Assembly (NCBI GenBank): GCA_964552565.1
Contig: CAZKGL010000001.1
Coordinates: 499,061 to 563,060, forward strand
Source: an uncultured Gammaproteobacteria bacterium
Lineage (GTDB): Bacteria > Patescibacteriota > Patescibacteriia > UBA9934
Length of the DNA stretch: 64,000 nucleotides
Reading direction: 5' to 3'
The notes under the pieces were generated by a model. That model had not been told where the DNA came from. It did not search any database and saw nothing but the letters and a program-made list of their open reading frames with translations. The position numbers were made by a program, and so were the translations under genes. Numbering within the stretch: position 1 is the first letter of the stretch; each line of letters begins with the position of its first letter. Positions 36,620 through 56,370 of this stretch are shown here, piece by piece.

Positions 36620-36623
36620 ATAC

Positions 36624-37358
36624 TTATTTCAGGAGATCCCAGGCAACCAAGTAAGAGGTGACGTCGTGTTCCATATTCCCAAGGTACACCTTCCCATCGC
36701 GAATTTTAATGTTTACGCGATAGCGTGTGCCGTTGCTGACAGGAAGTATAGCGCGTTCACGCACCTTTTGCTCAATGACGTGATATGGAAGAACTACGAA
36801 CTTCGTGGCCTCTTCTCCATGCAAAACAAAGACGTAATACACGTTCCCCGAGCCGTGACGATCAAAAGAAACCTTGCGGATATCGAAGACAAAGATGTTA
36901 AACCGATTGATGTTCGACGTCTTCACCTGGATGCCGAACAGCTTGTTGTCCTTGGTCGCGATGATATCTAAGCCAGTATCGACGCTCATGATGCTGGCGT
37001 TATAGCCAAGAAACAAAAGCTCGGCACAAACCGCATGCTCACCAGCCTTACCCGTACAGCCGCTGTCGATCGCAAGTTTTTCAACAATTGCTTTCTCTGC
37101 TGGCGTTTCTGGCGTCTCTTCCACCTTTTCGACCGTCTGGTTGCCACTCAAGTCATACACGCCGGGACCAACACGCTTAAACGCTGAATGCTTTTTCTTT
37201 GCATCAGTGGAAAGCCGCGCACTCATTGTCATTTCTGGCGTCGCTCCGTTCGTCTCCAAGAGGCCCCACTCGAGCGCAAGCTCGGTAATGCGCGCATAGT
37301 GAAGTGGTTCCCCCGCGCGCTTTAGCACTTCGGCTGCTGCCTGCTTAAAGGAGTTCAT
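36624..37358 (-). CDS. HARE-HTH domain fused to PD-(D/E)XK-like nuclease domain
   Basis: N-terminal FKQAAAEVLKRAGEPLHYARITELALEWGL (HARE-HTH), C-terminal E...D(TGLDII)...IQVK; start at MNSFKQ. Confidence 0.55.
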   Translation of the reverse strand: MNSFKQAAAEVLKRAGEPLHYARITELALEWGLLETNGATPEMTMSARLSTDAKKKHSAFKRVGPGVYDLSGNQTVEKVEETPETPAEKAIVEKLAIDSGCTGKAGEHAVCAELLFLGYNASIMSVDTGLDIIATKDNKLFGIQVKTSNINRFNIFVFDIRKVSFDRHGSGNVYYVFVLHGEEATKFVVLPYHVIEQKVRERAILPVSNGTRYRVNIKIRDGKVYLGNMEHDVTSYLVAWDLLK

Positions 37359-37360
37359 AT

Positions 37361-37786
37361 CTACGAGTTGAAGGGCAAGCCCGCACCGTCCTCGAGTTTC
37401 CCATCCCACCCCTCCGCCCTCTTTTGCACGTCCGCAAAACACACTTCGTCGTGCTCACCTTCTTTTTTGTCACACTCCTTTGCATGGTCGCGTTCGGCCA
37501 AGCGTTCGGCAAGGAGCGGCCAGAATTCGTCCTCGGCAACCGCGTGGAGCGCCGCGTCTGCGTCGTCGAAGAACGCGTCGGTCCAATGGTCCTCGTCCTG
37601 CGTATCCGGGGGAAACGTCATGCCGAAGTCTTCCGCGCGATCCATGAGTTGTTCCCACAGCTCCGCAAGCTCTTCGTCGAGCTTGTCGCCGCGCAGCCGC
37701 GCGACGTGTTCGTCAAGCACGATCGCCGCCGCAACTGCGCGCGTGAGAGACAAATAGTGTTTTGTGTGTAGTGTCAAATCAGCCAT
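37361..37786 (-). CDS. highly acidic 141-aa protein (candidate DNA-mimic/regulator)
   Basis: ~27% Asp+Glu, start MADLTLHTKHY; stop abuts start of HARE-HTH nuclease gene; higher G+C than neighbours. Confidence 0.45.
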   Translation of the reverse strand: MADLTLHTKHYLSLTRAVAAAIVLDEHVARLRGDKLDEELAELWEQLMDRAEDFGMTFPPDTQDEDHWTDAFFDDADAALHAVAEDEFWPLLAERLAERDHAKECDKKEGEHDEVCFADVQKRAEGWDGKLEDGAGLPFNS

Positions 37787-37913
37787 AGAGCAGGTCGAGC
37801 GTATCCCTTTTTCCCCATCTGTACAATCCTTGACAACCCTCCCTTTTGTGCTATGCTCGGGTTGTGTCACCACGAAAAGACCCCCTGCAGGTTCCGTCCT
37901 GCCGGGGTGCTTT

Positions 37914-38399
37914 TCATTTCGAGCGGTACTGAAGCTTCTCCTTGAGCGCATCAATGCCCGCCAGGCGCGACTTCGCAGCTTTCTTGAGCAGCCCGGAGTA
38001 GCGACGGCTGTTTGGCACAAGGACGACGCGGAGCTTTTCGAGAGCATCAAGATGCCGCACAAGGCAAGAAAAATCGCCATCACCGCTTACGATAACTGCC
38101 TGGTCATATTCGCCGAGGTCGATCATTGCCTGGAGCACGAGCTCGGCATCGATATTCCCCTTCAGGCGGCCGTCGCTATCGGGAATTGTCGGCTTAAAGA
38201 CGAGGACGAAACCCGCCTCCTGGAGATGTTGGTAAAGACTGTTATTGCCCGGGACAAACCCGATGAAGTAGTACGCCTTTGTGACGCCGTAATGTTCCTT
38301 GAGGTAGATGCGAAAACGGCGATGGTTGATCTTCCAACCAAGGTCCCGCAACGCCATTGTGACGTTGTTGCCATCGATAAATGCGTAGTTGCTTGCCAT
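37914..38399 (-). CDS. NYN-domain (LabA/DUF88-like) nuclease
   Basis: AFIDGNNV...IVSGDGDF acidic residues of PIN/NYN fold. Confidence 0.7.
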   Translation of the reverse strand: MASNYAFIDGNNVTMALRDLGWKINHRRFRIYLKEHYGVTKAYYFIGFVPGNNSLYQHLQEAGFVLVFKPTIPDSDGRLKGNIDAELVLQAMIDLGEYDQAVIVSGDGDFSCLVRHLDALEKLRVVLVPNSRRYSGLLKKAAKSRLAGIDALKEKLQYRSK

Positions 38400-44542: not shown

Positions 44543-45043
44543 TTATCGTACGGGAATACCGTTGCTCCCGACCGTCACCGTGCTTGACGCGCCGAACCAT
44601 TCGAGCGCGAGCGAGCCGTATTGCGCCGTCGTGCCGGTGTGCGTCACAAAGACGACCTCGTGGCTGTTCGACATGTCCGGGGCGCCGCCACTGAAGTCGA
44701 CCGACGTGAAGCGGATGTCGGGGCTCACGCTGAGGACGATATCCTTGCTCGTGTCGCGCGTCGCGTAGCTCGCGCCGGAAAACACGGTGATGGACGACGT
44801 GACCCGCGTGACCTCGTCATACGGGATGTACACGCCCCACGACGTGCCGGAGTGGCCGTTGCGCGCCCGGCGCGCCGCGAGCGCGACGGCGTTGACCACC
44901 TCGCGGTCCGTCGCCACCGTTGCGGCCGCGATTTGGAAACGCGAGAACGCGAAGGCGGACATCGCAAAGACGGCGAGGAGGATCCCCACGACGATGACGA
45001 CTTCGATGAGGGTGATGCCGCGCGGCACATTAAATCGTTCCAA
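44543..45043 (-). CDS. type IV minor pilin
   Basis: RG-ITLIE-VVIVVGILLAVF prepilin signature. Confidence 0.7.
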   Translation of the reverse strand: MERFNVPRGITLIEVVIVVGILLAVFAMSAFAFSRFQIAAATVATDREVVNAVALAARRARNGHSGTSWGVYIPYDEVTRVTSSITVFSGASYATRDTSKDIVLSVSPDIRFTSVDFSGGAPDMSNSHEVVFVTHTGTTAQYGSLALEWFGASSTVTVGSNGIPVR

Positions 45044-46154
45044 TAACCTTATAAATCGGCGTGATGATGGAGAACGCGAGCACGCCGACCATGACGCCGA
45101 TCAGCACGATAAGGAGCGGCTCGAGCAGCGTCGTCGCGTTCTTCGTCGCTTCGTCGACCTCCTGTTCGTAAAAGCCCGCAAGGTAGATACACATGTCGCC
45201 GAGCGTCCCCGTCTCCTCGCCGACGCGGATAAGCCGGAGCGCAATCGGCGGCACAAGGCGCGGCGACCCCGCGAGCGCGTCGGCGATGGTGCTGCCGTGC
45301 GCGATGGTCGTCAGCACCTTCTCGAACAACCGCTGGTAGTGGACGTTTTTCATGACCGAGATCGTCACGGGCAGCGCGTCGTTGATGGGCATGCCGCTCC
45401 CCAGCAGCGTGCCGAGGAGGCGGGTGCAGCGCGCAAGGTTCGCGTTCCGCGCAATCGTCCCGACGACGGGGAACCGGAGCGTCACCCAGTGCGTGAACGG
45501 CTTCACGAACGGCAGGGTGCGCAGGAACATGAACCCGACGGACGCGGCGATGAGGAGGACAAGGAGCAGCGGCCCATGGTTGCCGATGATGCCGGAGATC
45601 CACAAGAGCGCGACGGTCGTGGGCGGCAGCGGGACGTCGAGCGAATCGAAGAGCTTCGTGATATTCGGCAGGATAAACACGACAATGCCGGTCGTCACAA
45701 GGACGGCAGAGACGAGCACGATCGACGGGTACATCATCGCGCCGCGGATCTTTTGGCGCAGCTCGTGCTCCTTCTGCATCTGCCCGGCGAGCTGTTCGAA
45801 GTTCCCCTGCAGCGTGCCGGACGCTTCGCCGGCGCGGATGAGGTTGACGTAGATGCTCGAAAAGATGTGCGGGAAGTCCTCGAGGCCGTCGGCGAGCGTC
45901 TTGCCGCTCGTCACCGCCGCCTTCAGCGAACTGAGCACGGTCTTCAGCGGCCCCTTCGCCTGTTGCAAGAGGATATCGAGCGCGTCGTCGATCGGAAGCC
46001 CGGAACGCAAGAGCACGGAGAGATACTTGGTGAGGAGCAGCTGTTCGGTGTGCGACAGGCGGACCTGGAGCCGGGTCACCAACGAAACCCTGCGCCGGCC
46101 GGGGGCCGTCGCGAGCTTCTTTTCTGCGGGTTGTGCGGCAACGGCTTCCCCCAT
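45030..46154 (-). CDS. pilC: type IV pilus assembly platform protein PilC/GspF
   Basis: duplicated GspF domains, 3 TM; start at internal Met MGEAVAAQ (ATGA overlap with pilB). Confidence 0.8.
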   Translation of the reverse strand: MGEAVAAQPAEKKLATAPGRRRVSLVTRLQVRLSHTEQLLLTKYLSVLLRSGLPIDDALDILLQQAKGPLKTVLSSLKAAVTSGKTLADGLEDFPHIFSSIYVNLIRAGEASGTLQGNFEQLAGQMQKEHELRQKIRGAMMYPSIVLVSAVLVTTGIVVFILPNITKLFDSLDVPLPPTTVALLWISGIIGNHGPLLLVLLIAASVGFMFLRTLPFVKPFTHWVTLRFPVVGTIARNANLARCTRLLGTLLGSGMPINDALPVTISVMKNVHYQRLFEKVLTTIAHGSTIADALAGSPRLVPPIALRLIRVGEETGTLGDMCIYLAGFYEQEVDEATKNATTLLEPLLIVLIGVMVGVLAFSIITPIYKVIGTI

Positions 46155-46156
46155 AG

Positions 46157-47515
46157 CTATTCTTGCATGACGCGAACGAGCTCTTCGATCGTCGTCTGCT
46201 TCGCGATGACCTTGCGCGCGCCGTCTTCGACGACGGTCGTCATCCCCTCCTTGCGCGCCTGCGCTTCGATGTCGTCGCTCGACGCCCGAGTGACGATGAG
46301 CCGCTGGATTTCCGGCGAGTTCTCGAGGACCTCGTAGATGCCGACGCGGCCGCGGTAGCCGCTTTCGCCGCACTTCGCGCACTTCCCCGGCTTCGCGACC
46401 TCGATCGTCTGCGCGTCGCGGAACAGCGCGTCGACCGTTTCTTTGCTGAAGAGCTTCTCGGCGTCCGCGCGGGCGAGCTGCTCCGTGGTCATGCAGTCCT
46501 CGCAGACGCGCCGCACGAGGCGCTGCGCGATGGCGCAAATGAACGTCGATGCGATGAGGAACGGCTCGACGCCCATGTCGATGAGGCGCGGGATGGTCGT
46601 CGCGGAGTTGTTCGTGTGGAGCGTCGACAGGAGCTTGTGGCCGGTCATCGCGGCGTTCACGGCGATCTTCGCCGTTTCCTGGTCGCGGATTTCACCGACC
46701 ATGATGATGTCCGGGTCTTGGCGCAAAAGCGCGCGCAGCCCGGTGGCGAACGTCAGCTTCGCCACGTGGTCGACTTGGCTTTGGTTCGTGCCGGGAATTT
46801 CGAACTCGACCGGGTCTTCAATGGTGGCGACGTTCACTTCGCGCGTGTTGAGCACCTCCAAGATGGCGTAGATGGAGGTGGTCTTGCCGCTCCCGGTCGG
46901 GCCGGTGGCGAGGATCATGCCCCACGGCTTGCGGATGGCGCGCTGCACGCGTGCGAGGTCCTCTTCGGAAAACCCCAGCTGTTCGAGGGTGAGTTGGTGC
47001 GACTGGCTAGAGAGGAGGCGGAGGACCGCTTTTTCGCCGAGCGCGGTCGGGATGACGGACACGCGGACATCGACATCGCCGAGCGGACTTGTAAACTTGA
47101 AACGGCCGTCTTGCGGCGCGTGGTGCTCGTCGGTGCGCATCCGCGTCAGGATTTTCAGGCGGGCGATGACGCGGGCATGGAGCTCGGGCGCAACCGTGTA
47201 CTGGTCGTGCAGGATGCCGTCCACGCGGATGCGGACGACCGCTTCTTCCTTCCAGGGCTCGAGGTGCACGTCAGACGCACGGCTGGCGTGCGCGAATATC
47301 ATGAGCTGCTCGAACAGCTTGACTGCCGAGTCCTCCTTTGCGTGCGCGCCCGTCGCTTTGGCGATGAGGTCTTCGATCTCCTCCTTTGTGGGAAGTTTCA
47401 CCGAAGGATCCGGTTGCACCGCCGCCTTCGCGGCCGGCTTCGCGGGCGTTGCCGCAGGAACGTCAGCAATCGCGGCGGGCGCGTCGGCAACCGCTGCTCC
47501 TTTTTTCTTGGGCAT
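46157..47515 (-). CDS. pilB: type IV pilus assembly ATPase PilB/GspE
   Basis: Walker A GPTGSGKTT, Asp-box, His-box, tetracysteine motif; N-terminal low-complexity tail. Confidence 0.9.
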   Translation of the reverse strand: MPKKKGAAVADAPAAIADVPAATPAKPAAKAAVQPDPSVKLPTKEEIEDLIAKATGAHAKEDSAVKLFEQLMIFAHASRASDVHLEPWKEEAVVRIRVDGILHDQYTVAPELHARVIARLKILTRMRTDEHHAPQDGRFKFTSPLGDVDVRVSVIPTALGEKAVLRLLSSQSHQLTLEQLGFSEEDLARVQRAIRKPWGMILATGPTGSGKTTSIYAILEVLNTREVNVATIEDPVEFEIPGTNQSQVDHVAKLTFATGLRALLRQDPDIIMVGEIRDQETAKIAVNAAMTGHKLLSTLHTNNSATTIPRLIDMGVEPFLIASTFICAIAQRLVRRVCEDCMTTEQLARADAEKLFSKETVDALFRDAQTIEVAKPGKCAKCGESGYRGRVGIYEVLENSPEIQRLIVTRASSDDIEAQARKEGMTTVVEDGARKVIAKQTTIEELVRVMQE

Positions 47516-47656
47516 AGACGGAATGTCATGCGCATTTTACCGCATCACCCCATGCAACGACGATGTACATGTCCACACCGCGCTCGACGTTGCGGCGCGC
47601 GCGACGGTATACTGTGGGAAACGCGCGAAAAAGCGTACTAACAATTTTTTTGCACT

Positions 47657-48133
47657 ATGCAAAAGACTCAGCGAGGATTTACGCTCATGGAACTGCTCAT
47701 CGTCATTGCGGTCATCATCGTGCTTGCCGCGGCGGTGTTCGTCGCCCTTAACCCGGCGAAGCGCTTCCAGGATTCGCGCAACGCACGCCGCTCGAGCGAC
47801 GTCGCCGCGATCGTTGCAGGGTTGAAGACCGACCAGGTGGACAACGGCGGCACGTATCTCGCGTCCGTCGCCGCGCTGACCGTCGACACCGAATACCAGA
47901 TCGGCACGGCGGGTGCGGGCTGCGACAGCGGCTGTACCGCGGTGACGACCGAGGCGGCCTGCGCTGACCTCACCGGCCTCGTCACGGAAGGCTACCTCGG
48001 CAGCGTGCCGATGGACCCGTCGTCGGGCACGGCTGCAGAGACGGACTACTACATCATCCGCAACACGAGCGGCACCATCACGGTCGGCGCCTGCGATGCA
48101 GAAGGTGGCTCGACCGTCACCCTTTCGCGCTAA
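47657..48133 (+). CDS. type IV major pilin
   Basis: QRG-FTLMELLIVIAVIIVLAAAVF class-III leader, divergent from pilB. Confidence 0.85.
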   Translation: MQKTQRGFTLMELLIVIAVIIVLAAAVFVALNPAKRFQDSRNARRSSDVAAIVAGLKTDQVDNGGTYLASVAALTVDTEYQIGTAGAGCDSGCTAVTTEAACADLTGLVTEGYLGSVPMDPSSGTAAETDYYIIRNTSGTITVGACDAEGGSTVTLSR

Positions 48134-48144
48134 ACACCACACAG

Positions 48145-48178
48145 ACAAAAAACCCGCCGGTTGTACGGCGGGTTTTTT
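48145..48178. terminator. bidirectional intrinsic terminator A8-CCCGCCGG...CCGGCGGG-T6
   Basis: serves pilin (+) and tRNA-Tyr (-). Confidence 0.75.
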
Positions 48179-48263
48179 GGTGGGTCGGGAAGGGATCGAA
48201 CCTTCGAAGGCGTAAGCCAGCAGATTTACAGTCTGCCCCGTTTGACCACTTCGGTACCGACCC
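48178..48263 (-). tRNA. tRNA-Tyr(GTA), 86 nt with long variable arm, CCA encoded
   Basis: GGGTCGG acceptor, anticodon loop CTGTAAA, TTCGATC T-loop; close to E. coli tRNA-Tyr. Confidence 0.85.
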
Positions 48264-48311
48264 GGGAGGCTTCGCGGCATTATTCTGCCGCATGCCTGAA
48301 ACTTTTTCAAG

Positions 48312-48387
48312 TGGAGCCGGTGGTCGGATTTGAACCGACGGCCTGCTGTTTACAAAACAGCTGCTCTCACCCCTGAGCTACACCGGC
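48312..48387 (-). tRNA. tRNA-Thr(TGT), 76 nt, CCA encoded
   Basis: GCCGGTG/CACCGGC acceptor, anticodon stem-loop GCTGT-TTTGTAA-ACAGC, T-loop TTCAAAT. Confidence 0.8.
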
Positions 48388-48482: not shown

Positions 48483-49319
48483 TCAGTAGAACGTCGCGCG
48501 GTAGTCGCTCCAGTCGTAGGTGCACTGCACCTTGAGCGCGGTCCGCGTCGCGTGGTTGTGGTACGTGAAGTGCAGGTCGTTGCTGCCGATGCCGTCCCGC
48601 TTCCAGTCGACGATCTCGTTCGTCGACGCCGCGTAGGGAGCTTCGGGATCGCCCGTGCGCCGCATGAGCGCGAGGCCGAGCCCGTCGACGAGGAGCACGT
48701 CGTCCTCGGCCATGACGCTCGTGTAGTGCTGCGCCGCGTCGTCGGGAACGAGCTCGCGGCCGTTCACGAGCGCGATCCAGCCGCCCACGTACGACCACGG
48801 CTCGGGGTCGCCCTCTTCCTCGTCCGTGTGCGGGTCGAGTCCGTACAGCTCGCCCTCGCGGCAATTGTAGTACTGCTCACCGGCCGCGACATGCATCGCG
48901 ACGTCGACCACGTCCGTCTCCTCGTCCACCTCGGTTTCGAACGGGACCATCACCAGGCGGTGGTAGTCGTTGACGATGAGCGGGTAGAAATCCTCGGTGT
49001 ACCCGTCCTCGTCCGGGAAGTACGGGTGCGCGAGGTCGGACTGCGTGACCTCGGGCCCGATGACGATGCGCACCGCGCCGGTGCCCACCGCGAACGTCGC
49101 GTGCGTTTCGCCCACCGCGAGTACGTCGCCGTCCCGGTACAGCGTGAGCGGCAGCGGGTGCGACTCGACCGTCCCGACACGCGGAACGACCGACAGCGTC
49201 GCGGTCGGCGATTCATACGGCTCTTCCGCCGCCGCCGTGTCGTCGCCGATGTCCGGCAAACCGGTTTCCTTGCCGGCGCCGTCCACACACCCCATCATCA
49301 CGAGCATCATGCCCCCCAT
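48483..49319 (-). CDS. lipoprotein, unknown function
   Basis: start MGGMMLVMMGC with GGGGGGA SD; the 470-aa track ORF is an upstream read-through across REP3. Confidence 0.5.
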   Translation of the reverse strand: MGGMMLVMMGCVDGAGKETGLPDIGDDTAAAEEPYESPTATLSVVPRVGTVESHPLPLTLYRDGDVLAVGETHATFAVGTGAVRIVIGPEVTQSDLAHPYFPDEDGYTEDFYPLIVNDYHRLVMVPFETEVDEETDVVDVAMHVAAGEQYYNCREGELYGLDPHTDEEEGDPEPWSYVGGWIALVNGRELVPDDAAQHYTSVMAEDDVLLVDGLGLALMRRTGDPEAPYAASTNEIVDWKRDGIGSNDLHFTYHNHATRTALKVQCTYDWSDYRATFY

Positions 49320-49441
49320 GTCATCCCCCCCAGGCAGGCACACGTCCCGCCACCTCATCCATGGCATACCGGAGGGGAATGTCAAGGAATCCTGCAAAAT
49401 GCGATGAAAACAAAAAAATACGCACGCCATCCCGAGCACTC

Positions 49442-49469
49442 GGAAGCTCAGCTTCGAAGCTGAGCTTCC
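49442..49469. repeat. orphan REP element GGAAGCTCAGCTTCGAAGCTGAGCTTCC
   Basis: identical to REP2; intergenic between DUF2231 gene stop and lipoprotein start. Confidence 0.8.
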
Positions 49470-49510
49470 GATGTCGTTTGCTGCGTTCGTGGGTGGGGTA
49501 CACCGACCGA

Positions 49511-49993
49511 CTATTCTCCGATAAGGATGTCGTAGATAACCCGCGCTGCGGGATCGATGTCCGGTCCGTAGATCATTGTGCCGCCAAGCGCGCCCGTAAC
49601 CGTCACGAAGACGAGACCGAGGACGGCGAGCGGGACCGCGACCGCGGGGCGCAGGATGAACGCCGCCGCGCGCACCAGCCGCGCCGGGGCTTGGGCTTTC
49701 AGGATGACGACGACGTGCGCGGCCGCGAGGAGCGCGAAGCACAGCAACGTGTACAACGCAAAGTCGCCGTGGACGTCGAGCAGCTTCGGCACCTCCCCGT
49801 CGATGCCCTGTTCTTGGATCCACCCGGTAAAGAATGTGGGAACCGCGGCAAGGGCGCCGAGGATGGCGAACCCGGCCTTCATGGGGAACCACCACGACTG
49901 CTTCGTCACCGCCGGCACGCGCGCAATCTCAATGACGGCGTACACCGTGAGCAGCGCGATCGGGAAGTGGACGAGGATCGGATGGAGGTTCAC
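49511..49993 (-). CDS. DUF2231-like membrane protein
   Basis: 4 TM, MNLHPILVHFPIALL start typical of the family; often next to cupredoxins. Confidence 0.5.
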   Translation of the reverse strand: MNLHPILVHFPIALLTVYAVIEIARVPAVTKQSWWFPMKAGFAILGALAAVPTFFTGWIQEQGIDGEVPKLLDVHGDFALYTLLCFALLAAAHVVVILKAQAPARLVRAAAFILRPAVAVPLAVLGLVFVTVTGALGGTMIYGPDIDPAARVIYDILIGE

Positions 49994-49999
49994 ACGCCC

Positions 50000-50536
50000 C
50001 TACTCTTCAACAACCAGCGTGCCCTTCATGCCCATGGCACGGTGGCTGCCGACCGAGCAGTAATACTCGAAGCTTCCCGCCGTGTCGGCGACGAACTCGA
50101 TCGTTTCCGACGCGCCTGCCGACAACTTCTGCGTTGCGGCGTTGAACTCGTCGATCTTCCAGTCATGGAATCCTTCCGCGTTCGTGAAGACGATGCGGAC
50201 CGTGTCGCCCTTCTTGACCGTGAGGCTCGTCTCCGAAAATGCGAAGTTGTTCCCGGTCACCGCAAACTCGCGCACGGTCGGTTCCGCAGCATCCCCGACG
50301 ATGATATTCGCAGTGCCGTCAGCGCCCACGTCAATCTCGATCGTCGCCCCGGCCGGGTCGTCCTCGCCCTCGACGACCATCTCCTCCGCGTCCGACGTCG
50401 TGCCATCTTCTTCAATCACCGGCATGGTCGCGGACGTGCCCGCGTCGACCGAGGTGTCCGTCGTGGATTCAGCAGCGCAACCGGCGCCGGCAAGCAAAAG
50501 GAGCGAGGCAACAATGAGTGACGTACGCATACACAC
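50000..50536 (-). CDS. plastocyanin/azurin-type cupredoxin lipoprotein
   Basis: lipobox LAGAGC; type-1 Cu ligands H...C..H..M (HDW...YYCSVGSHRAMGM). Confidence 0.75.
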   Translation of the reverse strand: MCMRTSLIVASLLLLAGAGCAAESTTDTSVDAGTSATMPVIEEDGTTSDAEEMVVEGEDDPAGATIEIDVGADGTANIIVGDAAEPTVREFAVTGNNFAFSETSLTVKKGDTVRIVFTNAEGFHDWKIDEFNAATQKLSAGASETIEFVADTAGSFEYYCSVGSHRAMGMKGTLVVEE

Positions 50537-50592
50537 GATTTCAAGAATAACCTGGCCTATTGTACCTCGTCAGAACGGATGGGCAATGGCGG

Positions 50593-51705
50593 TTATTCCA
50601 CAGCCCCCGCCAGCCGCTCCGCGTTCTTGTACGCGTACTTTTCTTGGACGTCGGGGTCCAGCCGCCCAATGAACGCCCGGGCGTAGTCGGTCAGCAACAA
50701 TCCCGTCTCGCTGTCGAGCGACCAGTCCGAACTCCACCCGCGGTCGGTGCCCCAAAGTACTTGGTCCTGATGCGCTTCGATGAATGCGCTCCACGTCGCA
50801 ATGTCTTCATCGAGCAATGGCTCGTAATCCTCGAAGTGCGCGAAGAACGCATCCCTCCCCACTTCCGGGCGCAACAGGAAGTCGTCGCCGTACAGTTCGT
50901 CGACGCCGTAATACACGTTCGGATGGTTGTCGAGGATCTCGCCCACCGCGTCGAGGTCCTGGTGCCCGTCGTCCTCGTAGACGACGAGCTGGTCGCCGTG
51001 GAAAATAAAGTTGATGTCGGGGTACATCTCCGCCGCGCGTTCGAGGTTGTCCTGGTGGCCGACGCCGAGATGGACGTACACAAGGAGGTTGTTATCCGCG
51101 ACGACCGGGTAGATCTCCAGCATGCGCGGATCGTCCGGCGGGAGTTCGGGAGCGCCGCCGTTGCGGGCGTACAGGCCGATTTCGCCATAGCCCTCGAAGA
51201 GGCCCGGCGCGATGGCGAGCATGGTTTCGAGCGTCGCCGCGTCGACCGTCGGGAAGCCGTCCGGGCGGTCGTCGCTGTCAGGCGGCATAATGAACGGGAC
51301 GAACTGGTCGGGGTAGCGCTCCATGGTGCGCGCCGCGACCTCGACCATCGGCTCGGCCATGTCCTTCCAGACGCTGAAGAAGCCGAAGACCTTGTCCGTC
51401 CCCTCGGTCGCAAACGTACAGGCGATGCTGTCCATGGTGAGGTTCACGCCAAGGATCGGCCGCTCCTCAAGGTCGCCGGGCAGCGCGAGGTTGACCGGAC
51501 CGTCAGGGATCGCCGGGATGTGGATGTGCGTGTCCCACAATGGCCCGGTGTAGGAGCCCTCCGGATACTCGCGGACGAGTTCCGGACAGTCGACGTCCGT
51601 AAATGCGGCATCAACGCGGTCACGGCTCGCAAGCAAACCAACGACGATGACGAAGAGCGCGAGCCACACGATTGCGACCGCGCCTTTGAGAAGCATACGT
51701 TTCAT
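50593..51705 (-). CDS. secreted amidohydrolase-superfamily (TIM-barrel metal hydrolase) protein
   Basis: signal/TM, HIHI metal-binding start of barrel; stop overlaps next gene. Confidence 0.55.
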   Translation of the reverse strand: MKRMLLKGAVAIVWLALFVIVVGLLASRDRVDAAFTDVDCPELVREYPEGSYTGPLWDTHIHIPAIPDGPVNLALPGDLEERPILGVNLTMDSIACTFATEGTDKVFGFFSVWKDMAEPMVEVAARTMERYPDQFVPFIMPPDSDDRPDGFPTVDAATLETMLAIAPGLFEGYGEIGLYARNGGAPELPPDDPRMLEIYPVVADNNLLVYVHLGVGHQDNLERAAEMYPDINFIFHGDQLVVYEDDGHQDLDAVGEILDNHPNVYYGVDELYGDDFLLRPEVGRDAFFAHFEDYEPLLDEDIATWSAFIEAHQDQVLWGTDRGWSSDWSLDSETGLLLTDYARAFIGRLDPDVQEKYAYKNAERLAGAVE

Positions 51706-51974
51706 ACGGGAAGTGCGATAATCTCCGGCTGTTCCTTTCCTGCATGATACACGCGGACGCTTGCGCCGTCCTCCGCGAGCTCGACCTTTGTCACTCCGCT
51801 CGAGCCGCCGCCTTCCCAGCCCGGTCCGCCCTTATATTCGCTGGATGATTCCCCGGAAAACGTCATGACGACTTCCCCGGTCTCTTCATTGATGACGTCC
51901 CACGCACGATCGATCTCAAGCTCATAGAGATCACCGTGCTCGTGTTCGCGTGGTTGGATGCGATAGGTGGGCAT
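51702..51974 (-). CDS. hypothetical 90-aa protein
   Basis: between HExxH gene and amidohydrolase, overlapping stops/starts. Confidence 0.4.
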   Translation of the reverse strand: MPTYRIQPREHEHGDLYELEIDRAWDVINEETGEVVMTFSGESSSEYKGGPGWEGGGSSGVTKVELAEDGASVRVYHAGKEQPEIIALPV

Positions 51975-51980
51975 AGCGTA

Positions 51981-52700
51981 TTACGGGACAAGCGTCGTTC
52001 CAGCCTTCTGCACCGCGACGAGAATCGCGTCCGTGAGCGCGTCAACGTCGGGATATGCGCCGGCCGCATACTTTTTCGCAAGCGTCCGGACGATTCGCGC
52101 ATGTTCAGGATAGCCCATCGACGGTTCGCGGAAGACGCGCACCCAGCCCGGGGAGTTTTGCACGACAGTGTTGAAGATTTCCGAAACGTGCCAGACGAAA
52201 AAGTTATGCTTCTTTGCGCGGTACTTCGGGAAACGCGCGTAAAAATAGTCGTAGAACATGAAGTGCAGCAATTCGTGGGCGATGACGACCGTCACGTAGC
52301 GGAGGTTGTTATGCTCGAAAGGAATCTGGAACGTCTTGTCGTCCAGAAAACGCGGGTACATGGCCCACAGCGTGCCGTAGGCGGTGTACTTCCCCTTCGG
52401 CCACGGACGCCCGGGGAAAAGCCGCGCGACGAGCGCGAAGTACCGGGCTTCGACCTTGCGCCACCGGACCTCGTGCCGCGCCAGCCGCGTTGCGAGCCAT
52501 TCCGGTTCGGCGTACTGCTCGCGGACGAAGCGGTTGAAAGCGTTTTCGTCGTATAGCTTCTCACGAAGCTCCGGCCATTTTGAGAAAAATGCCCATTCCA
52601 AGTTGCGACCGCCGGAGTACTTCGCCTCTTTGACGAAGCCTTTTGCGGTGTCGAGGTCTTTTGTTTTGCTGACGCGGAAGGTGACGTGCGGATAGCGCAT
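51981..52700 (-). CDS. HExxH-motif protein (putative zinc hydrolase/peptidase) in RiPP cluster
   Basis: real gene is the C-terminal 240 aa of the 711-aa track ORF (start MRYPHVTF); VVIAHELLHFMFYDYFY. Confidence 0.5.
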   Translation of the reverse strand: MRYPHVTFRVSKTKDLDTAKGFVKEAKYSGGRNLEWAFFSKWPELREKLYDENAFNRFVREQYAEPEWLATRLARHEVRWRKVEARYFALVARLFPGRPWPKGKYTAYGTLWAMYPRFLDDKTFQIPFEHNNLRYVTVVIAHELLHFMFYDYFYARFPKYRAKKHNFFVWHVSEIFNTVVQNSPGWVRVFREPSMGYPEHARIVRTLAKKYAAGAYPDVDALTDAILVAVQKAGTTLVP

Positions 52701-52762
52701 AAAAATGTAAAGGGGACGCGTCGAACGCGTCCCCTCAAGGGTAGCAGGTTGCTTCTGGCCGC

Positions 52763-54130
52763 TCAACCGGTCGCCGCCCGCTGGTTCTCGAACGCGTCCC
52801 AGAGGAGCCACTCGAGCGTGCGCTGGCTGTGCGCGCAGGCGCGCTCGTCGCGCAGGAAGCGGTCGCCGTGCTTGAGCTCGACGCTCGCCGGGCAGCCCCC
52901 GCCGCAGATGCCGAGCGCCGGACACGCCCGGCAGGCGGGCATGGTGAAGGGCGAGCGCTCGCGCCACTCGCCGAACAGCCGCTCGAGCAGGTCGTCGTGG
53001 TTGTCGTCGTAGACCGAGGCCGGGAAGTACGTGCGCGGCTTCACGAAGTCCTGGCAGACCCCGATCCGCCCGTCCGGCGCGATGACGAGCTGGTTGCCGA
53101 CCACGCCGCAGTCGGCGTACATCGGCCGCTGGTCGACGAACGCACGTGCCTTGCGCATGACGCGTTCCTCGTAGAAGCCGCGCGCGCGGAAGCGCTGGAA
53201 CGCGACGATCTGGCACTCGACCGCACGGCGGTAGTAATCCTCCGGCAGGGCGAGGTGCGGCGTGAAGTGCAGGAGGTTGAGACTGATGCCCTGCGCCTGC
53301 GCGAACTCGCCCTCGGTGAAGAAGTCGAGGACTTCGTCGAAGCGCGCGATGGCCTCGGGCGTGAGGGTGACCGACAGGCCGACCTCGACGCCGTGCGCGC
53401 GCAGCATCCGGAAGGCGCTGGTGATCTTGTCCATGACCGGCACCCCGGGACGCTTCGCGACGCGGTAGCGCTCGGTCACCTGCCGCGGGCCGTCGACCGA
53501 CAGCCCCACCGTCACGCCGTGCTGCGCGAACAGCCGCGCATCGGCTTCGGTGAGGAGCACGCCGTTCGTGACCATGGTGACGACCGTCGAGCCAGGCAGC
53601 GCGCCGCGTTCCTTGAGCTCGGCCACGTAGCGCACCGTCTCGTAGACCGCGTGACGGTTCACGAGCGGCTCGCCGCCGTAGAGGTGCACGACCTTCTTCA
53701 TGGCGGGGTTGCCGTGGCGCGCCGTCATGGCGGCGAACAGGTCGAGCGACGCCCGCACGGTCTCGTGGGTCATGCGCGTCGTTCGGAAGTCGCTGGCCAC
53801 GCCCGGCGTCTCCTCGAAGCAGTACGTGCACCGCAGGTTGCAGCCGTCGGTGACGAGGAGGTAGAGAAGCTCGAGGCTGATGGCCGAACGGAGCGCGGCG
53901 TACGTCTGCGCGAAGAGCGCGTCGTCGTCCGCGTCCGCGTCGACGAGCATGCCGAGGCTCCGCAGCCCCTCGGACACGTCGGGGTCGTCCGGCGCGCCGT
54001 TGACGGCGATCTGCCGCGTGATGGCCGCGAAGTCCGCCGAAGCGAGGTACGCGACCTGCAGCGTGAGCGTGTGGAAGAGCGCGACGACGCCGTCGCGCTC
54101 GAACGGGTGACACCACCGAGAGAGACGCAT
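52763..54130 (-). CDS. radical SAM / SPASM-domain peptide maturase with N-terminal RRE-like domain
   Basis: CxxxCxxC (DGCNLRCTYCFEE) ~100 aa from N-terminus, C-terminal SPASM Cys cluster (CRACPALGICGGGCPA); start at internal Met MRLSRW with GGAGG SD. Confidence 0.8.
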   Translation of the reverse strand: MRLSRWCHPFERDGVVALFHTLTLQVAYLASADFAAITRQIAVNGAPDDPDVSEGLRSLGMLVDADADDDALFAQTYAALRSAISLELLYLLVTDGCNLRCTYCFEETPGVASDFRTTRMTHETVRASLDLFAAMTARHGNPAMKKVVHLYGGEPLVNRHAVYETVRYVAELKERGALPGSTVVTMVTNGVLLTEADARLFAQHGVTVGLSVDGPRQVTERYRVAKRPGVPVMDKITSAFRMLRAHGVEVGLSVTLTPEAIARFDEVLDFFTEGEFAQAQGISLNLLHFTPHLALPEDYYRRAVECQIVAFQRFRARGFYEERVMRKARAFVDQRPMYADCGVVGNQLVIAPDGRIGVCQDFVKPRTYFPASVYDDNHDDLLERLFGEWRERSPFTMPACRACPALGICGGGCPASVELKHGDRFLRDERACAHSQRTLEWLLWDAFENQRAATG

Positions 54131-54139
54131 CGTGCCTCC

Positions 54140-54176
54140 AAAAAAGTGACGAGGGGGCCGGCAGACGGTCCCCCTC
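54140..54176 (-). terminator. attenuator hairpin (GAGGGGGACCGUCUGCCGGCCCCCUC) + U6 between precursor and maturase
   Basis: 7-bp GC stem, U-tract overlaps maturase SD. Confidence 0.6.
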
Positions 54177-54195
54177 GAGGTTGATCCCACCCCCG

Positions 54196-54306
54196 CTAGC
54201 AGCGGGTGCAGGAGGTGAAGCAGCAGTCGACGAAGTCGCGCCCCGGCTTGGGGACGGACCCGAGGACCTTCGTACGCGCGGAACGGGACAGGACGAGCAC
54301 CTTCAC
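54196..54306 (-). CDS. 36-aa Cys-rich RiPP precursor peptide (ranthipeptide/SCIFF-like): MKVLVLSRSARTKVLGSVPKPGRDFVDCCFTSCTRC
   Basis: GTG start 4 nt after GGAGG; 5 Cys in last 10 residues; immediately upstream of rSAM-SPASM; not in ORF track (too short). Confidence 0.7.
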   Translation of the reverse strand: MKVLVLSRSARTKVLGSVPKPGRDFVDCCFTSCTRC

Positions 54307-54362
54307 GGGACCTCCGGACGCGGAACGCAACGCAGGAGCGCGTGCGTATCCGGCCGAACACT

Positions 54363-54390
54363 ACTATACGGTGAATTCCGGCGGTGTCAA
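54363..54390 (-). promoter_or_regulatory. sigma70 promoter TTGACA-16-TATAGT driving RiPP operon, with adjacent 7-bp inverted repeat GCGCGTC-T-GACGCGC
   Basis: read directly on minus strand ~50 nt upstream of precursor start. Confidence 0.6.
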
Positions 54391-54457
54391 TTGCGCGTCT
54401 GACGCGCAGCGCGGCCGAATTCGGGATTGATCATAGCGCACCGAGTATTCCACGCGC

Positions 54458-54787
54458 CTACTTCATACGGTTCCAGATCTTCTCGTATGCATCCGCAACG
54501 GTTTCGGGAGCCCAGATGTAGACGAGGTACCCGCCCTCTTCGGACTCGATGTACAGTTTCGATTGCTCATCCGAAAGCTTCACGGTAGTGATCGGCGAAC
54601 CTCCCGCTTCGAGGTATTTGAAGAACTGTTGAAAATCAAACTCCACAAACTGACGCCAATATTCGCCCTCAGCAAAACGGCATTTGCCGGTCAGTGCGCG
54701 ATCCGCTTCTTCGCACACGGCAAGAATACCGGGGATATCTTTTTCATTGATCGCGGCAATAATGCGGTCGGTGACATGAGCAACCAT
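54458..54787 (-). CDS. NTF2/SnoaL-like small protein
   Basis: 109 aa from internal Met MVAHVTDRII; low-G+C islet. Confidence 0.4.
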   Translation of the reverse strand: MVAHVTDRIIAAINEKDIPGILAVCEEADRALTGKCRFAEGEYWRQFVEFDFQQFFKYLEAGGSPITTVKLSDEQSKLYIESEEGGYLVYIWAPETVADAYEKIWNRMK

Positions 54788-54965
54788 ACGAAAATAGTGA
54801 TAATGCCATGCCGTACATGCACATGGTATAAGGAACGACCCTGCGCGTCTATTGCTCGGCCCAAGGAGGCCGCATTTTGCCCCCAACGAAAATACCGCTG
54901 CATCAGCGGTATTTTTGCGGCACGGCATCGCGAGCCAAGCGAGAACTCTTGCAACAACGGTGTGA

Positions 54966-55304
54966 TCACCCGTTTCCGCAATTCTTGCCGACAACCTTTT
55001 CGTTGACATCAAAATAGACTTCCAGTCCACCATCCCAATCCGGAAGGTCATACAGCCACCCTGACGTTATCTGCTGCTCCAGTTCACCTTGACCAAAGCG
55101 ATCGCCGCCGAGCTCCTCCTTTACTACTTTTTCATCAGGTTGCCCAAGTACCTCCGCTACCTCCTCTGCCGTCATTTCGTTTTCAATGCGATCGAAGTCT
55201 GGGTAAGTACAAGCGAACCTGTTGTCCGAAATTCGTTGATAGCCCAGATACACCGCGATACCGACGAGTAGAGCCACGGTAATTCCGATTGCGGTCGCTT
55301 TCAT
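54966..55304 (-). CDS. small membrane-anchored protein
   Basis: N-terminal TM MKATAIGITVALLVGIAVYLGY. Confidence 0.45.
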   Translation of the reverse strand: MKATAIGITVALLVGIAVYLGYQRISDNRFACTYPDFDRIENEMTAEEVAEVLGQPDEKVVKEELGGDRFGQGELEQQITSGWLYDLPDWDGGLEVYFDVNEKVVGKNCGNG

Positions 55305-55437
55305 AGCATCTCTTATTTTCCACGATGCTATCAGATCATCACGTAAAGTTCTATGCCCTCGTGGCCCAAACTAAAGATTTTATTCTTACTAGCAGAATCT
55401 TTTGTGGCGGCCTTAGTGCACGACCTGAGAACTCTTG

Positions 55438-55845
55438 CTACGTTAAATCCGTGAATGGATTCCATGCAACTTCCCAAACGTGACCGTCGAGATCTTCGAA
55501 GTAGCCAGAATATCCGCCCCAAAATGTGTCTTGCGCTGGACGAATAATTTTTGCTCCTTGGCTGACAACTTCAGCAAACACGGCGTCGACTTTTTCTTTG
55601 GATCCGACATTGTGCCCGAGTGTAATGCCCGAGAAAGCACCTCGCCCCTTTTCTTTTCCAGCGTCTTCTGCGAGTTTTTCGTAAGGGAAGAGGGCGACTT
55701 TTGTTCCTTCAGTATCAAACATGACGAAATCGTCGCCATCTCCGCTCAGAATAGAAAATTCGAGCGAGGTATAAAATTGCGTTGCGCGAGGAATGTCTTC
55801 GACCCCTAAGGTAATGAGGCTAACTTTTGGTTTCATATACATCAA
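55438..55845 (-). CDS. VOC/glyoxalase-bleomycin-resistance fold protein
   Basis: paired beta-alpha-beta-beta-beta modules, ~130 aa. Confidence 0.6.
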   Translation of the reverse strand: MMYMKPKVSLITLGVEDIPRATQFYTSLEFSILSGDGDDFVMFDTEGTKVALFPYEKLAEDAGKEKGRGAFSGITLGHNVGSKEKVDAVFAEVVSQGAKIIRPAQDTFWGGYSGYFEDLDGHVWEVAWNPFTDLT

Positions 55846-56117
55846 TCTATGAATCGATAATGGAGCCGTTTGAATGTGAGCTCAAGCTGAGCCTTTAGCT
55901 GTCCGCGTCCTTTGCCGCCTTTTAAAAACTTCTCGCGTCGCTTTGCTTCTTGTTCCGTGGGGTACGCCTCGTAATAAATGAGTTCGAGAGGACGTCGGTG
56001 CATTGTCGCTGCCACAAGCCCCTTCGAATGACGATCGAAACGTTCCATCACATCCGAAGAATAACCGATGTAAAGCTTCCCATCTTGTTTGCTGTAGAGA
56101 ACATACGTGAAGAACAT
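55842..56117 (-). CDS. GIY-YIG nuclease-family protein
   Basis: MFFTYVLYSKQDGKLYIGYSSDVMERFDRH = GIY-YIG core; alt start 56171; track start 56279 is TTG. Confidence 0.7.
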   Translation of the reverse strand: MFFTYVLYSKQDGKLYIGYSSDVMERFDRHSKGLVAATMHRRPLELIYYEAYPTEQEAKRREKFLKGGKGRGQLKAQLELTFKRLHYRFID

Positions 56118-56295
56118 AGTCTGTTTATTGTAACGCAAAACGAGCCGCGATGGCTCGTTTTGGCTACTCATGTGACCTGAGTTTGCGCACTCGCTTGGCG
56201 AGGTGGGTCCGCTGAGCGGACCTATCCACCCAGCATCGCTGGGGTACAGCCAACGCTTAGCGTTGGCCATTGTGCACAAACCCAGCTCAGCTGGG

Positions 56296-56370
56296 TGGCA
56301 GGGACGCAGGGATTCGAACCCTGAATAACGGTTTTGGAGACCGTTGTGATAGCCATTTCACTACATCCCT
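56296..56370 (-). tRNA. tRNA-Trp(CCA), 75 nt, CCA encoded
   Basis: AGGGATG/CGTCCCT acceptor, anticodon loop CTCCAAA, T-loop TTCGAAT; close to E. coli tRNA-Trp. Confidence 0.85.

Follow-up and report, generated by a model that had tools for sequence, protein, structure and literature searches.

The closest curated family to the radical-SAM (rSAM) maturase described here is FibroRumin (TIGR04136), a family curated in silico (NCBIfam holds the maturase and a 'FibroRumin family radical SAM-modified Cys-rich RiPP') whose name was not found in the literature searched. The match is the best to any curated family and is full length (residues 3–446 against positions 1–453 of a 458-position profile, E 1.5e-70), but at 238 bits it falls below the 400-bit cut-off. 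Both systems have a small Cys-rich precursor immediately 5′ of an RRE-rSAM-SPASM enzyme, but FibroRumin precursors carry seven or eight cysteines in CxC and CxxC runs and an acidic tail (CIGQCTGCMCSCRCSCSGKNYEDD...), whereas the core in Patescibacteria has four, in CC[YF]TSCTRC, at or near the C-terminus, and the FibroRumin peptide model does not match the precursor. In the FibroRumin example that we inspected, on a Campylobacter plasmid (28% identity to our maturase), the HExxH protein of the Patescibacteria cassette is replaced as partner by a double-ATPase of 698 aa that on visual inspection resembles UvrA.

Among the SCIFF systems (ScfA-ScfB; CteA/CteB, Tte1186a/Tte1186) is the closest solved structure to the maturase, that of CteB. 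They share with the cassette the order of precursor then maturase, a core that is not hypervariable but strongly conserved throughout a lineage, a minimal unit without a dedicated transporter, and the pentad C-x-T-S-C, present in the bona fide SCIFF peptide ...CQTSCQSACKTSCG... and the place where SCIFF carries its Cys-to-Thr thioether (PMC8326336), which joins Cys32 to Thr34 or Thr37 (PMC8326336, PMC8172795). They differ in that the maturase scores 92.7 bits with the ScfB model, whose cut-off is 425, the Patescibacteria peptide has four cysteines instead of six, lacks the GGCGxC part and matches neither the SCIFF model nor any other NCBIfam model, even at E 10, the SCIFF example inspected was without an HExxH partner, and SCIFF ranges over Clostridia and Bacilli, not Patescibacteria. 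Of the other ranthipeptide and sactipeptide synthases, PapB (freyrasin) is the second-best curated match (118 bits; cut-off 340). Such enzymes likewise apply rSAM/SPASM chemistry to Cys-containing cores, but the targets of PapB are C-x3-D repeats (PMC8172795), of which the Patescibacteria core has none.

For the HExxH protein, the closest known proteins are zincin/gluzincin metallopeptidases (the catalytic domain of M1 aminopeptidases, thermolysin) and the alpha-KG-HExxH oxygenases ChlH and PflC, the latter resembling it also in being genetically coupled to an rSAM/SPASM maturase. It differs from all of these as a stand-alone protein of about 240 aa that by sequence belongs to no Pfam, NCBIfam or PDB family and forms a family of its own of about 700 clusters (at 50% identity).

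A compact three-gene cassette

How, then, is the Patescibacteria locus built? Read directly on the minus strand from 5′ to 3′, it consists of a promoter, a 36-aa ORF, a hairpin with a U-tract, the rSAM/SPASM gene and the HExxH gene (Table 1). Precursor, maturase and HExxH protein make up a compact RiPP operon, as the first-pass annotation had claimed, and no transporter, immunity gene or further tailoring gene lies within the conserved unit. Its near-consensus promoter, its GGAGG-GTG precursor ORF and its account of the maturase (a CxxxCxxC motif, room for an RRE and a SPASM Cys cluster) are likewise upheld, and the HExxH protein that it placed in the operon proves to be a constant partner (the only other conserved neighbour, present at 35 of 38 loci, the remainder being truncated). 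The overlapping stops and starts that it saw among the rSAM, HExxH and 90-aa frames are absent: a 62-nt spacer containing hairpin 2 follows the rSAM gene, and 6 nt separate the HExxH gene from the 90-aa ORF.

Table 1. Features of the locus; positions are those of the window, the whole 64,000-nt stretch of DNA analysed
Feature	Position	Strand	Basis or remark
Sigma-70-type promoter: TTGACA 54390-54385, 16-nt spacer, TATAGT 54368-54363	54363..54390	(-)	11/12 match
Precursor Shine-Dalgarno (SD) GGAGG, 4 nt 5′ of GTG	54311..54315	(-)	Direct sequence reading
Precursor gene, 36 aa; GTG at 54306, TAG at 54198-54196	54196..54306	(-)	Unannotated; conserved
Terminator-like hairpin 1: 8-bp GC stem and inner stem, TCAC, T6	54140..54177	(-)	Sequence and fold
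Radical-SAM/SPASM maturase, 455 aa	52763..54130	(-)	Pfam Radical_SAM, NCBIfam, AF2, fold match
Terminator-like hairpin 2: 12-bp stem, 8 GC pairs, T-rich tail reaching HExxH ATG	52701..52736	(-)	Fold, z = -3.87
HExxH protein, 239 aa, cytoplasmic, zincin-like	51981..52700	(-)	Fold and motif
90-aa orphan ORF	51974-51702	(-)	Outside conserved unit
Amidohydro_2 protein	51705-50593	(-)	Pfam; outside conserved unit
Cupredoxin	50536-50000	(-)	Pfam; outside conserved unit
DUF2231	49993-49511	(-)	Pfam; outside conserved unit

The small ORF (MKVLVLSRSARTKVLGSVPKPGRDFVDCCFTSCTRC), which has a leader motif R-x-K-V-L-G and ends in the core CCFTSCTRC, is a genuine conserved precursor gene, because an equivalent ORF lies immediately 5′ of the maturase orthologue at 18 of 19 genome loci (the exception, L018, is truncated 5′) and because a metagenome scan that started from the peptide gave 15 loci, all 15 with the maturase directly downstream; the adjacency thus emerges from either query. 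At protein level the small ORF is preserved at every untruncated locus, and its core consensus CC[YF]T[ST]C[TM]RC is retained while synonymous codons vary freely (all four for Thr, TCN and AGC for Ser, CGN and AGR for Arg), so selection acts on the protein. Among 25 DNA-distinct cores of the CC type, three of the four cysteines are invariant, and the fourth is missing only in L005, which lacks the last one. The [YF]-T-[ST] stretch, with its aromatic residue, also fits a three-residue cyclophane motif.

The regulatory layout, that is, the promoter and both hairpins, recurs together with the small ORF at orthologous loci, in host genomes of 30–54% GC. The precursor promoter is the best of three promoter-like sites in the 6.5 kb from 49000 to 55500 (1.1 expected), and 16 of 30 orthologous loci have a match of at least 10 of 12 positions 5′ of the precursor; among control windows the rate is 7.6%. 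Hairpin 1 has arms CGAGGGGG (54177-54170) and CCCCCTCG (54157-54150), followed by TCAC and TTTTTT (54145-54140). The annotation had it overlapping the next SD; hairpin and U-tract are there, and their position is conserved, but the U-tract abuts the maturase SD (GGAGG, 54139-54135; ATG at 54130) and does not overlap it. Taken alone, this region is no more stable than shuffled sequence (z = -0.63, unexceptional for GC-rich sequence), so the case for the hairpin comes from its conserved position: a hairpin and U-tract of unrelated sequence stand in the same place at most orthologous loci. Hairpin 2 (52736-52710) is the stronger, none of 200 shuffles folding as well, and an equivalent with a U-tract abutting the start codon was found at about 15 of 17 orthologous loci. 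No SD is visible for the HExxH gene.

On balance we favour the reading that this is a self-contained RiPP cassette with attenuated expression, in which the maturase forms thioethers and the HExxH enzyme serves as peptidase. The strong, constitutive-type promoter would give a short precursor-encoding transcript, and the two hairpins in series would pass progressively less RNA to the maturase and then to the HExxH gene, so that substrate would exceed enzymes.

The maturase and its probable cross-link

The 455-aa protein is an rSAM/SPASM enzyme of the peptide-maturase type, and not an anSME; its highest-scoring NCBIfam matches are all to peptide maturases. It has the motif C97-x3-C101-x2-C104 and a complete seven-cysteine SPASM motif (C341, C359, C400, C403, C409, C413, C432), the cysteines being invariant, and its AF2 model (pLDDT 93.9) shows an N-terminal beta3-alpha3 RRE-like domain (about residues 1–85). 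The best fold match is CteB (5wgg), which aligns along the whole protein, RRE and all (Foldseek E 4e-21, TMq 0.73; 18% identity), and TigE also aligns full length. These nearest structural relatives, at 17–19% identity, differ in reaction (thioether formation in CteB, cyclopropane formation in TigE), so homology does not by itself fix the reaction of the maturase.

A cross-linker of the Cys-rich peptide is the most likely role. The RRE-like domain would bind the leader at the conserved R-x-K-V-L-G region, and 5′-deoxyadenosyl radical chemistry, with the SPASM auxiliary clusters, would cross-link the nearly invariant core. Ranthipeptide-like thioether chemistry is a reasonable inference from the Cys-rich core, the C-x-T-S-C pentad and the CteB-like fold; the product would most likely carry one or more Cys-to-Thr thioether bridges, and by analogy with SCIFF the foremost candidate for the acceptor is the Thr, itself invariant, that lies two positions past the second Cys.

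The same cassette might instead house a maturase of another kind, making a triceptide-type cyclophane at [YF]-T-[ST], or performing C-C or C-O cross-linking, epimerization or cyclopropanation, with the cysteines binding metal or forming disulfides in the product. Only Y or F occurs at the aromatic position and the Thr that follows it is invariant, the cyclophane maturases YhhB, FxsB, AmcB and GrrM each give a significant NCBIfam match (62–77 bits), ChlB is among both the fold and the sequence matches, and TigE, as close as CteB, is a cyclopropyl synthase. Against this, the maturases of thioether and Cys-rich peptides score higher (FibroRumin, PapB and SCIFF), the core cysteines are hardly ever lost, and the pentad coincides with the SCIFF cross-link site. 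Moreover, only seven invariant SPASM cysteines are available for two clusters, a number that points to an open iron site where a substrate thiol could bind, as in CteB. Non-thioether chemistry is a possibility that we regard as real, if unlikely.

The HExxH protein

The invariant residues of the HExxH protein are H142-E143-x-x-H146, S173-E174, N177 and P198-x-H200, and its fold is that of a zincin, M1-like. Fold and motif make it most likely a zinc peptidase, which in the cytoplasm would remove the leader and any follower. It might otherwise be one of the zincin-like alpha-KG-HExxH enzymes, non-haem oxygenases that use Fe(II) and alpha-ketoglutarate, and hydroxylate or oxidatively cleave the cross-linked peptide, since enzymes of that kind occur alongside rSAM/SPASM maturases or as fusions with them, and for a long time carried mistaken metallopeptidase annotations (PMC12636437). 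His200 could then provide a third ligand, with the invariant R117 and K122 as a possible 2-oxoacid anchor. Several observations make us doubt this: none of 30 family members matches TIGR04267 (= IPR026337), even at E 10; the weak sequence matches are to zincin peptidase families (SprT, DUF3267, DUF5700); E174, 28 residues past H146, fits the third ligand of a gluzincin; and nothing else in the cassette is a peptidase candidate. The oxygenase chemistry also requires O2, and many Patescibacteria are anaerobes. We consider an oxygenase unlikely and continue to prefer the peptidase.

The extent of the unit

In the first-pass annotation the amidohydrolase, cupredoxin lipoprotein and DUF2231 genes had suggested a possible link to copper, redox or envelope function, and a longer operon, in which the peptide acts with them in envelope copper/redox handling, would be in keeping with their co-directional, tight packing (the 6-nt gap past the HExxH gene is followed by an ATGA overlap of 90-aa ORF and amidohydrolase at 51705-51702, the only overlap) and with the ability of Cys-rich peptides to bind copper. 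The comparative data largely refute it: none of the four tail genes, the 90-aa ORF included, has a homologue in 34 orthologous loci (L001–L019 and L048–L062). In L065, the closest relative, a cupredoxin (46% identical) does recur no more than 2 kb away, but behind DUF456 and two unknown genes (one on the opposite strand), and with no homologue of the 90-aa ORF or the amidohydrolase there or at any other locus compared; DUF2231 would not be detectable on this contig, which stops at the cupredoxin. Local synteny among close relatives would yield such a resemblance, and a separate promoter-like site (50586-50559) precedes the cupredoxin gene. The copper/redox link is thus unsupported and very improbable, and the amidohydrolase, cupredoxin and DUF2231 genes are bystanders.

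Finally, the idea that the rSAM enzyme is an anSME-type maturase whose protein substrate is encoded at another locus, with the small ORF no more than a chance frame, can draw on significant matches to TIGR03942 (95 bits) and PDB 4k37 (E 2e-24), but these span only residues ~95–435, leaving the RRE-like domain uncovered, and fall far under the 349-bit cut-off and below the leading peptide maturases, no sulfatase is nearby, and conservation of the small ORF beside the maturase, with residues invariant under codon change, rules it out.

The locus is thus a genuine peptide natural-product locus of the rSAM-modified Cys-rich RiPP kind that lies outside every curated family: none covers the peptide or the HExxH protein, and none matches the maturase above its cut-off. 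The cassette is present in many ultra-small CPR/Patescibacteria and, as far as has been seen, is known only from Patescibacteria.

The precursor gene and the cassette that it heads

The short open reading frame (ORF) immediately upstream of the radical-SAM gene in the window is a gene. Because such peptides are largely missing from gene calls (of three inspected loci that extend over the peptide gene, only one has it annotated), their co-occurrence with the maturase was tested at the DNA level. Scanning a single genome for each species gave 19 orthologous loci (L001-L019; genome GC 30-54%). In 18 of them the maturase gene is directly preceded by a small ORF with a C-terminal Cys-rich core, and the exception (L018) is cut off at its 5' end. 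In a reverse test, metagenome contigs were scanned with the back-translated core alone, and the maturase gene lay immediately downstream in all 15 of the 15 loci recovered, with the HExxH gene after it wherever the locus was of sufficient length. Both the conservation of the small ORF and its co-occurrence with the maturase, named as checks when a ranthipeptide-like RiPP operon was proposed in the first-pass annotation, are thus borne out.

The aligned peptides have in common a leader motif, ..V-P-x4-R-x-K-V-L-G.., and a core, CC[YF]T[ST]C[TM]RC, and R11, C28, C29, T31, C33, R35 and C36 are unchanged in 13 precursor sequences; the most distant locus, L019, has a different core (C-x2-C-x3-C-x2-C). 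The nine core codons occur in 25 distinct DNA versions, in which the residues are constant and the codons are not (all four Thr codons occur, Ser is encoded by TCN and AGC, and Arg by CGN and AGR), which indicates selection on the protein and not on RNA; given this codon-level variation, we rejected the reading of the ORF as a cis-RNA that is not a gene. The window holds no known RNA families besides three tRNAs. Six orthologous precursors matched no NCBIfam family at E <= 10, and a 44-aa, TTG-start version of the precursor gave no word-sharing candidate in a collection of 5.8 billion proteins.

Features of the cassette and its surroundings (window positions, except for the last row, which gives positions in locus L046)
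Feature	Position	Strand	Remarks
Promoter	TTGACA 54390-54385; TATAGT 54368-54363	minus	16-nt spacing; 11/12 consensus
SD and start of precursor gene	GGAGG 54315-54311; GTG 54306	minus	
Precursor ORF	stop 54198-54196	minus	36 aa, MKVLVLSRSARTKVLGSVPKPGRDFVDCCFTSCTRC
Hairpin 1	54177-54150	minus	GC-rich; then TCAC and T6 (54145-54140)
Radical-SAM protein gene	ATG 54130, end 52763	minus	455 aa; GGAGG
Hairpin 2 and T-tract	52736-52701	minus	z = -3.87; stronger than hairpin 1
HExxH protein gene	52700-51981	minus	239 aa
Low-GC island with type III restriction-modification pair	29000-38000		892-aa ResIII helicase with endonuclease domain; 760-aa N6/N4 methylase
tRNA-Trp	56296-56370	minus	
GIY-YIG nuclease	55842-56279		low-GC islet
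Glyoxalase/VOC protein	55438-55845		low-GC islet
Two ORFs without family	54966-55304; 54458-55051		low-GC islet
tRNA-Thr, tRNA-Tyr	48178-48387		other side of region
PilC-like membrane protein	45030-46538	minus	
PilB/GspE-like ATPase	46157-47515	minus	
Prepilin	47657-48133	plus	N-terminus GFTLMELLIV
Two further radical-SAM genes	8530-9624; 11375-12778		

Promoter, Shine-Dalgarno (SD) sequence, small ORF, hairpin and radical-SAM gene are all to be read on the minus strand where the first-pass annotation had placed them, whereas the overlaps that it described among the radical-SAM, HExxH and 90-aa ORFs are not there: a 62-nt spacer containing hairpin 2 parts the radical-SAM gene from the HExxH gene, 6 nt lie between the HExxH stop and the start of the 90-aa ORF, and the sole overlap (ATGA) joins the stop of the 90-aa ORF to the Amidohydro_2 start codon. 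The whole cassette occupies about 2.4 kb, and the window has one copy of the precursor gene.

Both junctions of the cassette carry a GC-rich hairpin and U-tract at conserved positions. Between the precursor and maturase genes, a GC hairpin with U-tract, of unrelated sequence, is present in most loci (in the window, hairpin 1 alone is no more stable than shuffles; z = -0.63), and between the maturase and HExxH genes about 15 of 17 loci have a hairpin whose U-tract leads directly into the ATG. These are the two highest-ranked terminator-like sites on the cassette strand in 11 kb of L005, in which the precursor promoter is a perfect TTGACA-17-TATAAT, and hairpin 2 ranks first among such sites in L012. 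Of 30 loci, 16 have a promoter match of at least 10/12 ahead of the precursor gene, compared with 7.6% of control windows; a 6.5-kb part of the window has three promoter-like sites (shuffles give 1.1), and that of the precursor is the best match among them. Stepwise attenuation, a logic familiar from other peptide operons, is plausible from this layout: the precursor would be abundant, the maturase less so and the HExxH protein least. In most orthologous loci, as in the window, the U-tract of hairpin 2 ends exactly at the HExxH ATG, leaving no space for an SD sequence.

When the flanking ORFs of 38 loci were clustered all against all, only the maturase (38) and the HExxH protein (35) were found in common, the remaining large clusters being antisense shadows of these two genes; the flanks themselves vary by locus (NusA/YidC, integrase/AbiEii, T4SS parts). 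In the genome loci the maturase gene comes first and the HExxH gene second (18 of 18), except in the distant L019, where the HExxH gene is the upstream one. A link to copper or redox functions, earlier suggested by the genes downstream in the window, is unsupported and we reject it: the 90-aa ORF, amidohydrolase, cupredoxin and DUF2231 genes have no homologue in 34 orthologous loci (L001-L019 and L048-L062). In the closest relative, L065 (53% GC), where the HExxH protein is 77% identical to that of the window, a 46% identical cupredoxin (2653-3162) lies 1.7 kb downstream of the cassette, but a DUF456 gene and two unknown genes lie between them, the 90-aa ORF and the amidohydrolase are absent, and the contig stops at the cupredoxin, putting DUF2231 outside its reach. 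This looks like local synteny, not linkage. No transporter is conserved across the compared loci; an 'ABC' cluster in the all-against-all comparison reflected generic ATPase similarity, and an MsbA-like exporter adjoins the cassette only in L003 and L052.

The 90-aa ORF (MPTYRIQPREHEHGDLYELE..., 51702-51974) has no family, no visible SD sequence and no homologue at related loci; it is annotated as a gene in an independent assembly of the window organism. Elsewhere in the window, the low-GC island at 29000-38000 (45-53% versus about 63% outside it) encodes PD-(D/E)XK nucleases and a HARE-HTH protein besides its restriction-modification pair; it is probably a defence island gained by horizontal transfer. 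A low-GC islet (54458-56370; about 48%) lies between tRNA-Trp and the promoter of the cassette, and type IV pilus genes, recognized from their translations only, adjoin the region (45030-48133).

The maturase and its HExxH partner

The maturase has hundreds of relatives. Identity to it is 43-69% among the best 120, setting aside the window's own protein, of which an 838,942-bp contig carries an identical copy, and every taxon-specific source name points to Patescibacteria. It is annotated in databases as a 'radical SAM protein'. Pfam recognizes only Radical_SAM (PF04055, 68 bits against a 29.5-bit cut-off) and Fer4_12. In an alignment of 28 homologues, the SAM-binding [4Fe-4S] motif CxxxCxxC is unchanged (C97-x3-C101-x2-C104), as is the full SPASM pattern (tested as CX9-15GX4C ... 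CX2CX5CX3C ... C), consisting of C341-x12-G354-x4-C359, C400-x2-C403-x5-C409-x3-C413 and C432. The Pfam SPASM model scored below threshold on the window protein and is recorded for three of its homologues (P0076, P0097 and P0099). In the AlphaFold (AF2) model (pLDDT 93.9) the N-terminal domain has strands at 7-12, 15-20 and 25-30 and helices at 31-44, 50-58 and 66-82, a predicted fold of the PqqD-like RRE type (three strands, three helices), with no match of the maturase to Pfam PqqD. The closest solved structure found by Foldseek was the SCIFF thioether synthase CteB (E 4e-21, TM 0.73), aligned at full length over 476 columns, with TigE beside it and then anSME, ChlB and SuiB. We therefore place the protein in the rSAM/SPASM/RRE maturase superfamily.

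The best NCBIfam match, over the full length, was to the FibroRumin-system peptide maturase (TIGR04136; 238.3 bits against a 400-bit cut-off), followed by PapB (118), DynA (97), the nif11-type maturase (97), anSME (95), CbpB and QhpD (94), and SCIFF ScfB (93), with many more peptide maturases lower down. Identity with anSME was rejected, the match being limited to residues 95-432 and far below the 349-bit cut-off of TIGR03942; the extra RRE-like domain of the model and the lack of a sulfatase in the neighbourhood also speak against it. The choice between anSME and a peptide maturase had been named beforehand as a refutation test, and the SPASM pattern, RRE-type domain, CteB-like fold and family scores together favour the peptide maturase. 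In L046 (Candidatus Azambacteria, GCA_001774215.1), the 5 kb downstream of the cassette hold two more radical-SAM genes, one with a weak SPASM match and the other encoding a 467-aa protein like the maturase, and these may represent a second peptide-modification system.

The third protein is annotated as 'hypothetical', as are all its relatives, and its family spans about 700 clusters at 50% identity. Sequence searches of Pfam, NCBIfam and the PDB gave no match for the protein; phmmer and hmmsearch comparisons of the protein or its family with the PDB gave only noise (ferritin, phage gateway proteins; E > 0.05), and longer or distant family members showed no informative fused domain in Pfam. 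Its invariant residues include H142-E143-x-x-H146, S173-E174, N177, P198 and H200. In the predicted structure, HExxH lies on the active-site helix of a zincin fold, and the invariant E174, 28 residues past H146 and a candidate third zinc ligand, is on the next long helix (163-181). A function as leader peptidase is favoured, since weak matches of the family are to putative zincin peptidases (SprT, DUF3267, DUF5700) and no member matched the alpha-KG-HExxH model TIGR04267/IPR026337 even at E 10. These same results count against an Fe(II)/alpha-KG oxygenase, a rival that is nevertheless a live one, as HExxH proteins paired with radical-SAM maturases have proved to be such oxygenases and not proteases (PMC12636437). 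The family is wider than the cassette: weak second copies, 26-28% identical over 100-145 aa, occur in L007 (1355-1645, minus strand), L009 (9193-9597) and L048 (2575-2868).

Likely chemistry and comparison with known systems

The precursor core is short and Cys-dense, with four Cys among nine residues. Since the nearest structural relatives of the maturase carry out differing reactions, at less than 20% identity, its reaction cannot be read from homology. A bona fide SCIFF sequence that we inspected reads ...CQTSCQSACKTSCG..., and from our own count on it, together with what we take to be the CteA numbering, the SCIFF thioether presumably falls within the C-x-T-S-C-x unit. The patescibacterial core has the SCIFF pentad in the form C-[YF]-T-S-C, with an invariant Thr; in SCIFF, Cys32 is joined by the thioether to the C-gamma of Thr34 in vivo and to Thr37 in vitro (PMC8326336, PMC8172795). 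By analogy, the most likely product of the maturase would be a thioether from Cys to Thr, given the shared pentad, a fold like that of CteB and seven SPASM cysteines that never vary; we give this roughly an even chance. Ranthipeptides are defined by a bond from a Cys sulfur to the beta or gamma carbon of a second residue, and sactipeptides by a bond to its alpha carbon. A cyclophane link to the aromatic residue of a three-residue motif also fits, the [YF] position of the core always being aromatic.

The nearest curated system is FibroRumin, represented by a Campylobacter plasmid whose maturase is 28% identical to that of the window. The precursors of that example, with 7-8 Cys and an acidic tail, are quite unlike the cassette core, and the partner is a large ATPase. 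With a maturase below the TIGR04136 cut-off and a precursor unmatched by the Cys-rich RiPP model, the cassette falls outside FibroRumin; nor does it belong to SCIFF (maturase 92.7 bits against a 425-bit ScfB cut-off; a precursor with four Cys, not six, and no model match), from whose precursors only the C-x-T-S-C pentad is common to both, or to PapB. In the literature searched, there was neither an account of the cassette system or its core sequence nor a paper that mentions FibroRumin. We rate the cassette as encoding a radical-SAM-modified, Cys-rich RiPP with a precursor family and maturase clade of its own, and a new partner family.

Distribution and possible role

When about 186,000 species genomes were scanned by pattern, the cassette turned up in 19 species, and as far as seen it is limited to Patescibacteria, among which it is patchily spread: the three-gene unit recurs across several lineages, mostly missed by annotation. 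Two full cassettes (L007 and L008) are in metagenome-assembled genomes labelled 'uncultured Gammaproteobacteria' (33-39% GC), labels that may stem from errors in binning or classification; otherwise these would be the sole instances outside Patescibacteria; the other carriers with a specific taxon label are all Patescibacteria, and three are labelled merely 'bacterium'. Patescibacteria have tiny genomes. Surveys have reported biosynthetic clusters to be scarce or absent in them, and the few that occur have no known role (PMC9765116, PMC11613949).

Genes for sensor histidine kinases closely precede the precursor gene on the same strand in several lineages: L006 (1744-3357), L012 (2840-4576), L051 (40-2772) and L009 (2-1966). 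Those of L006 and L051 have a HisKA_7TM domain, that of L012 resembles the L006 protein over its full length, and that of L009 is of the GAF type. L001 has a kinase and an apparent receiver-domain ORF (from its N-terminal sequence, by eye) on the opposite strand (2208-3855), and there is no histidine kinase beside the cassette in the window. Such adjacency may be a lead to a regulatory or signalling link.

What might the product do? The core hardly varies, even between distant classes, and this speaks for a conserved molecular target and not for a bacteriocin shaped by an arms race. Together with the absence of export and immunity genes, it argues against a classical bacteriocin; a conserved target, signal or cofactor-like role fits better, and a similar argument has been made for SCIFF (PMC8326336). 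In its fullest form, that the cassette makes a lineage-specific, non-antibiotic, ranthipeptide-like signal or cofactor-like factor of these ultra-small episymbiotic bacteria, we regard the proposal as rather improbable. In its favour are the almost constant nine-residue core, the lack of an attached transporter or immunity gene, the repeated presence of 7TM-type kinases next to the cassette (L006, L012, L051) and an HExxH partner, outside all Pfam and NCBIfam models, that could carry out a new reaction in place of simple leader removal. A cassette of about 2.4 kb with a defined nine-residue core is very tractable for heterologous expression, which would reveal what reaction is catalysed by the maturase clade to which FibroRumin belongs, and what the HExxH family, with its roughly 700 sequence clusters, does.
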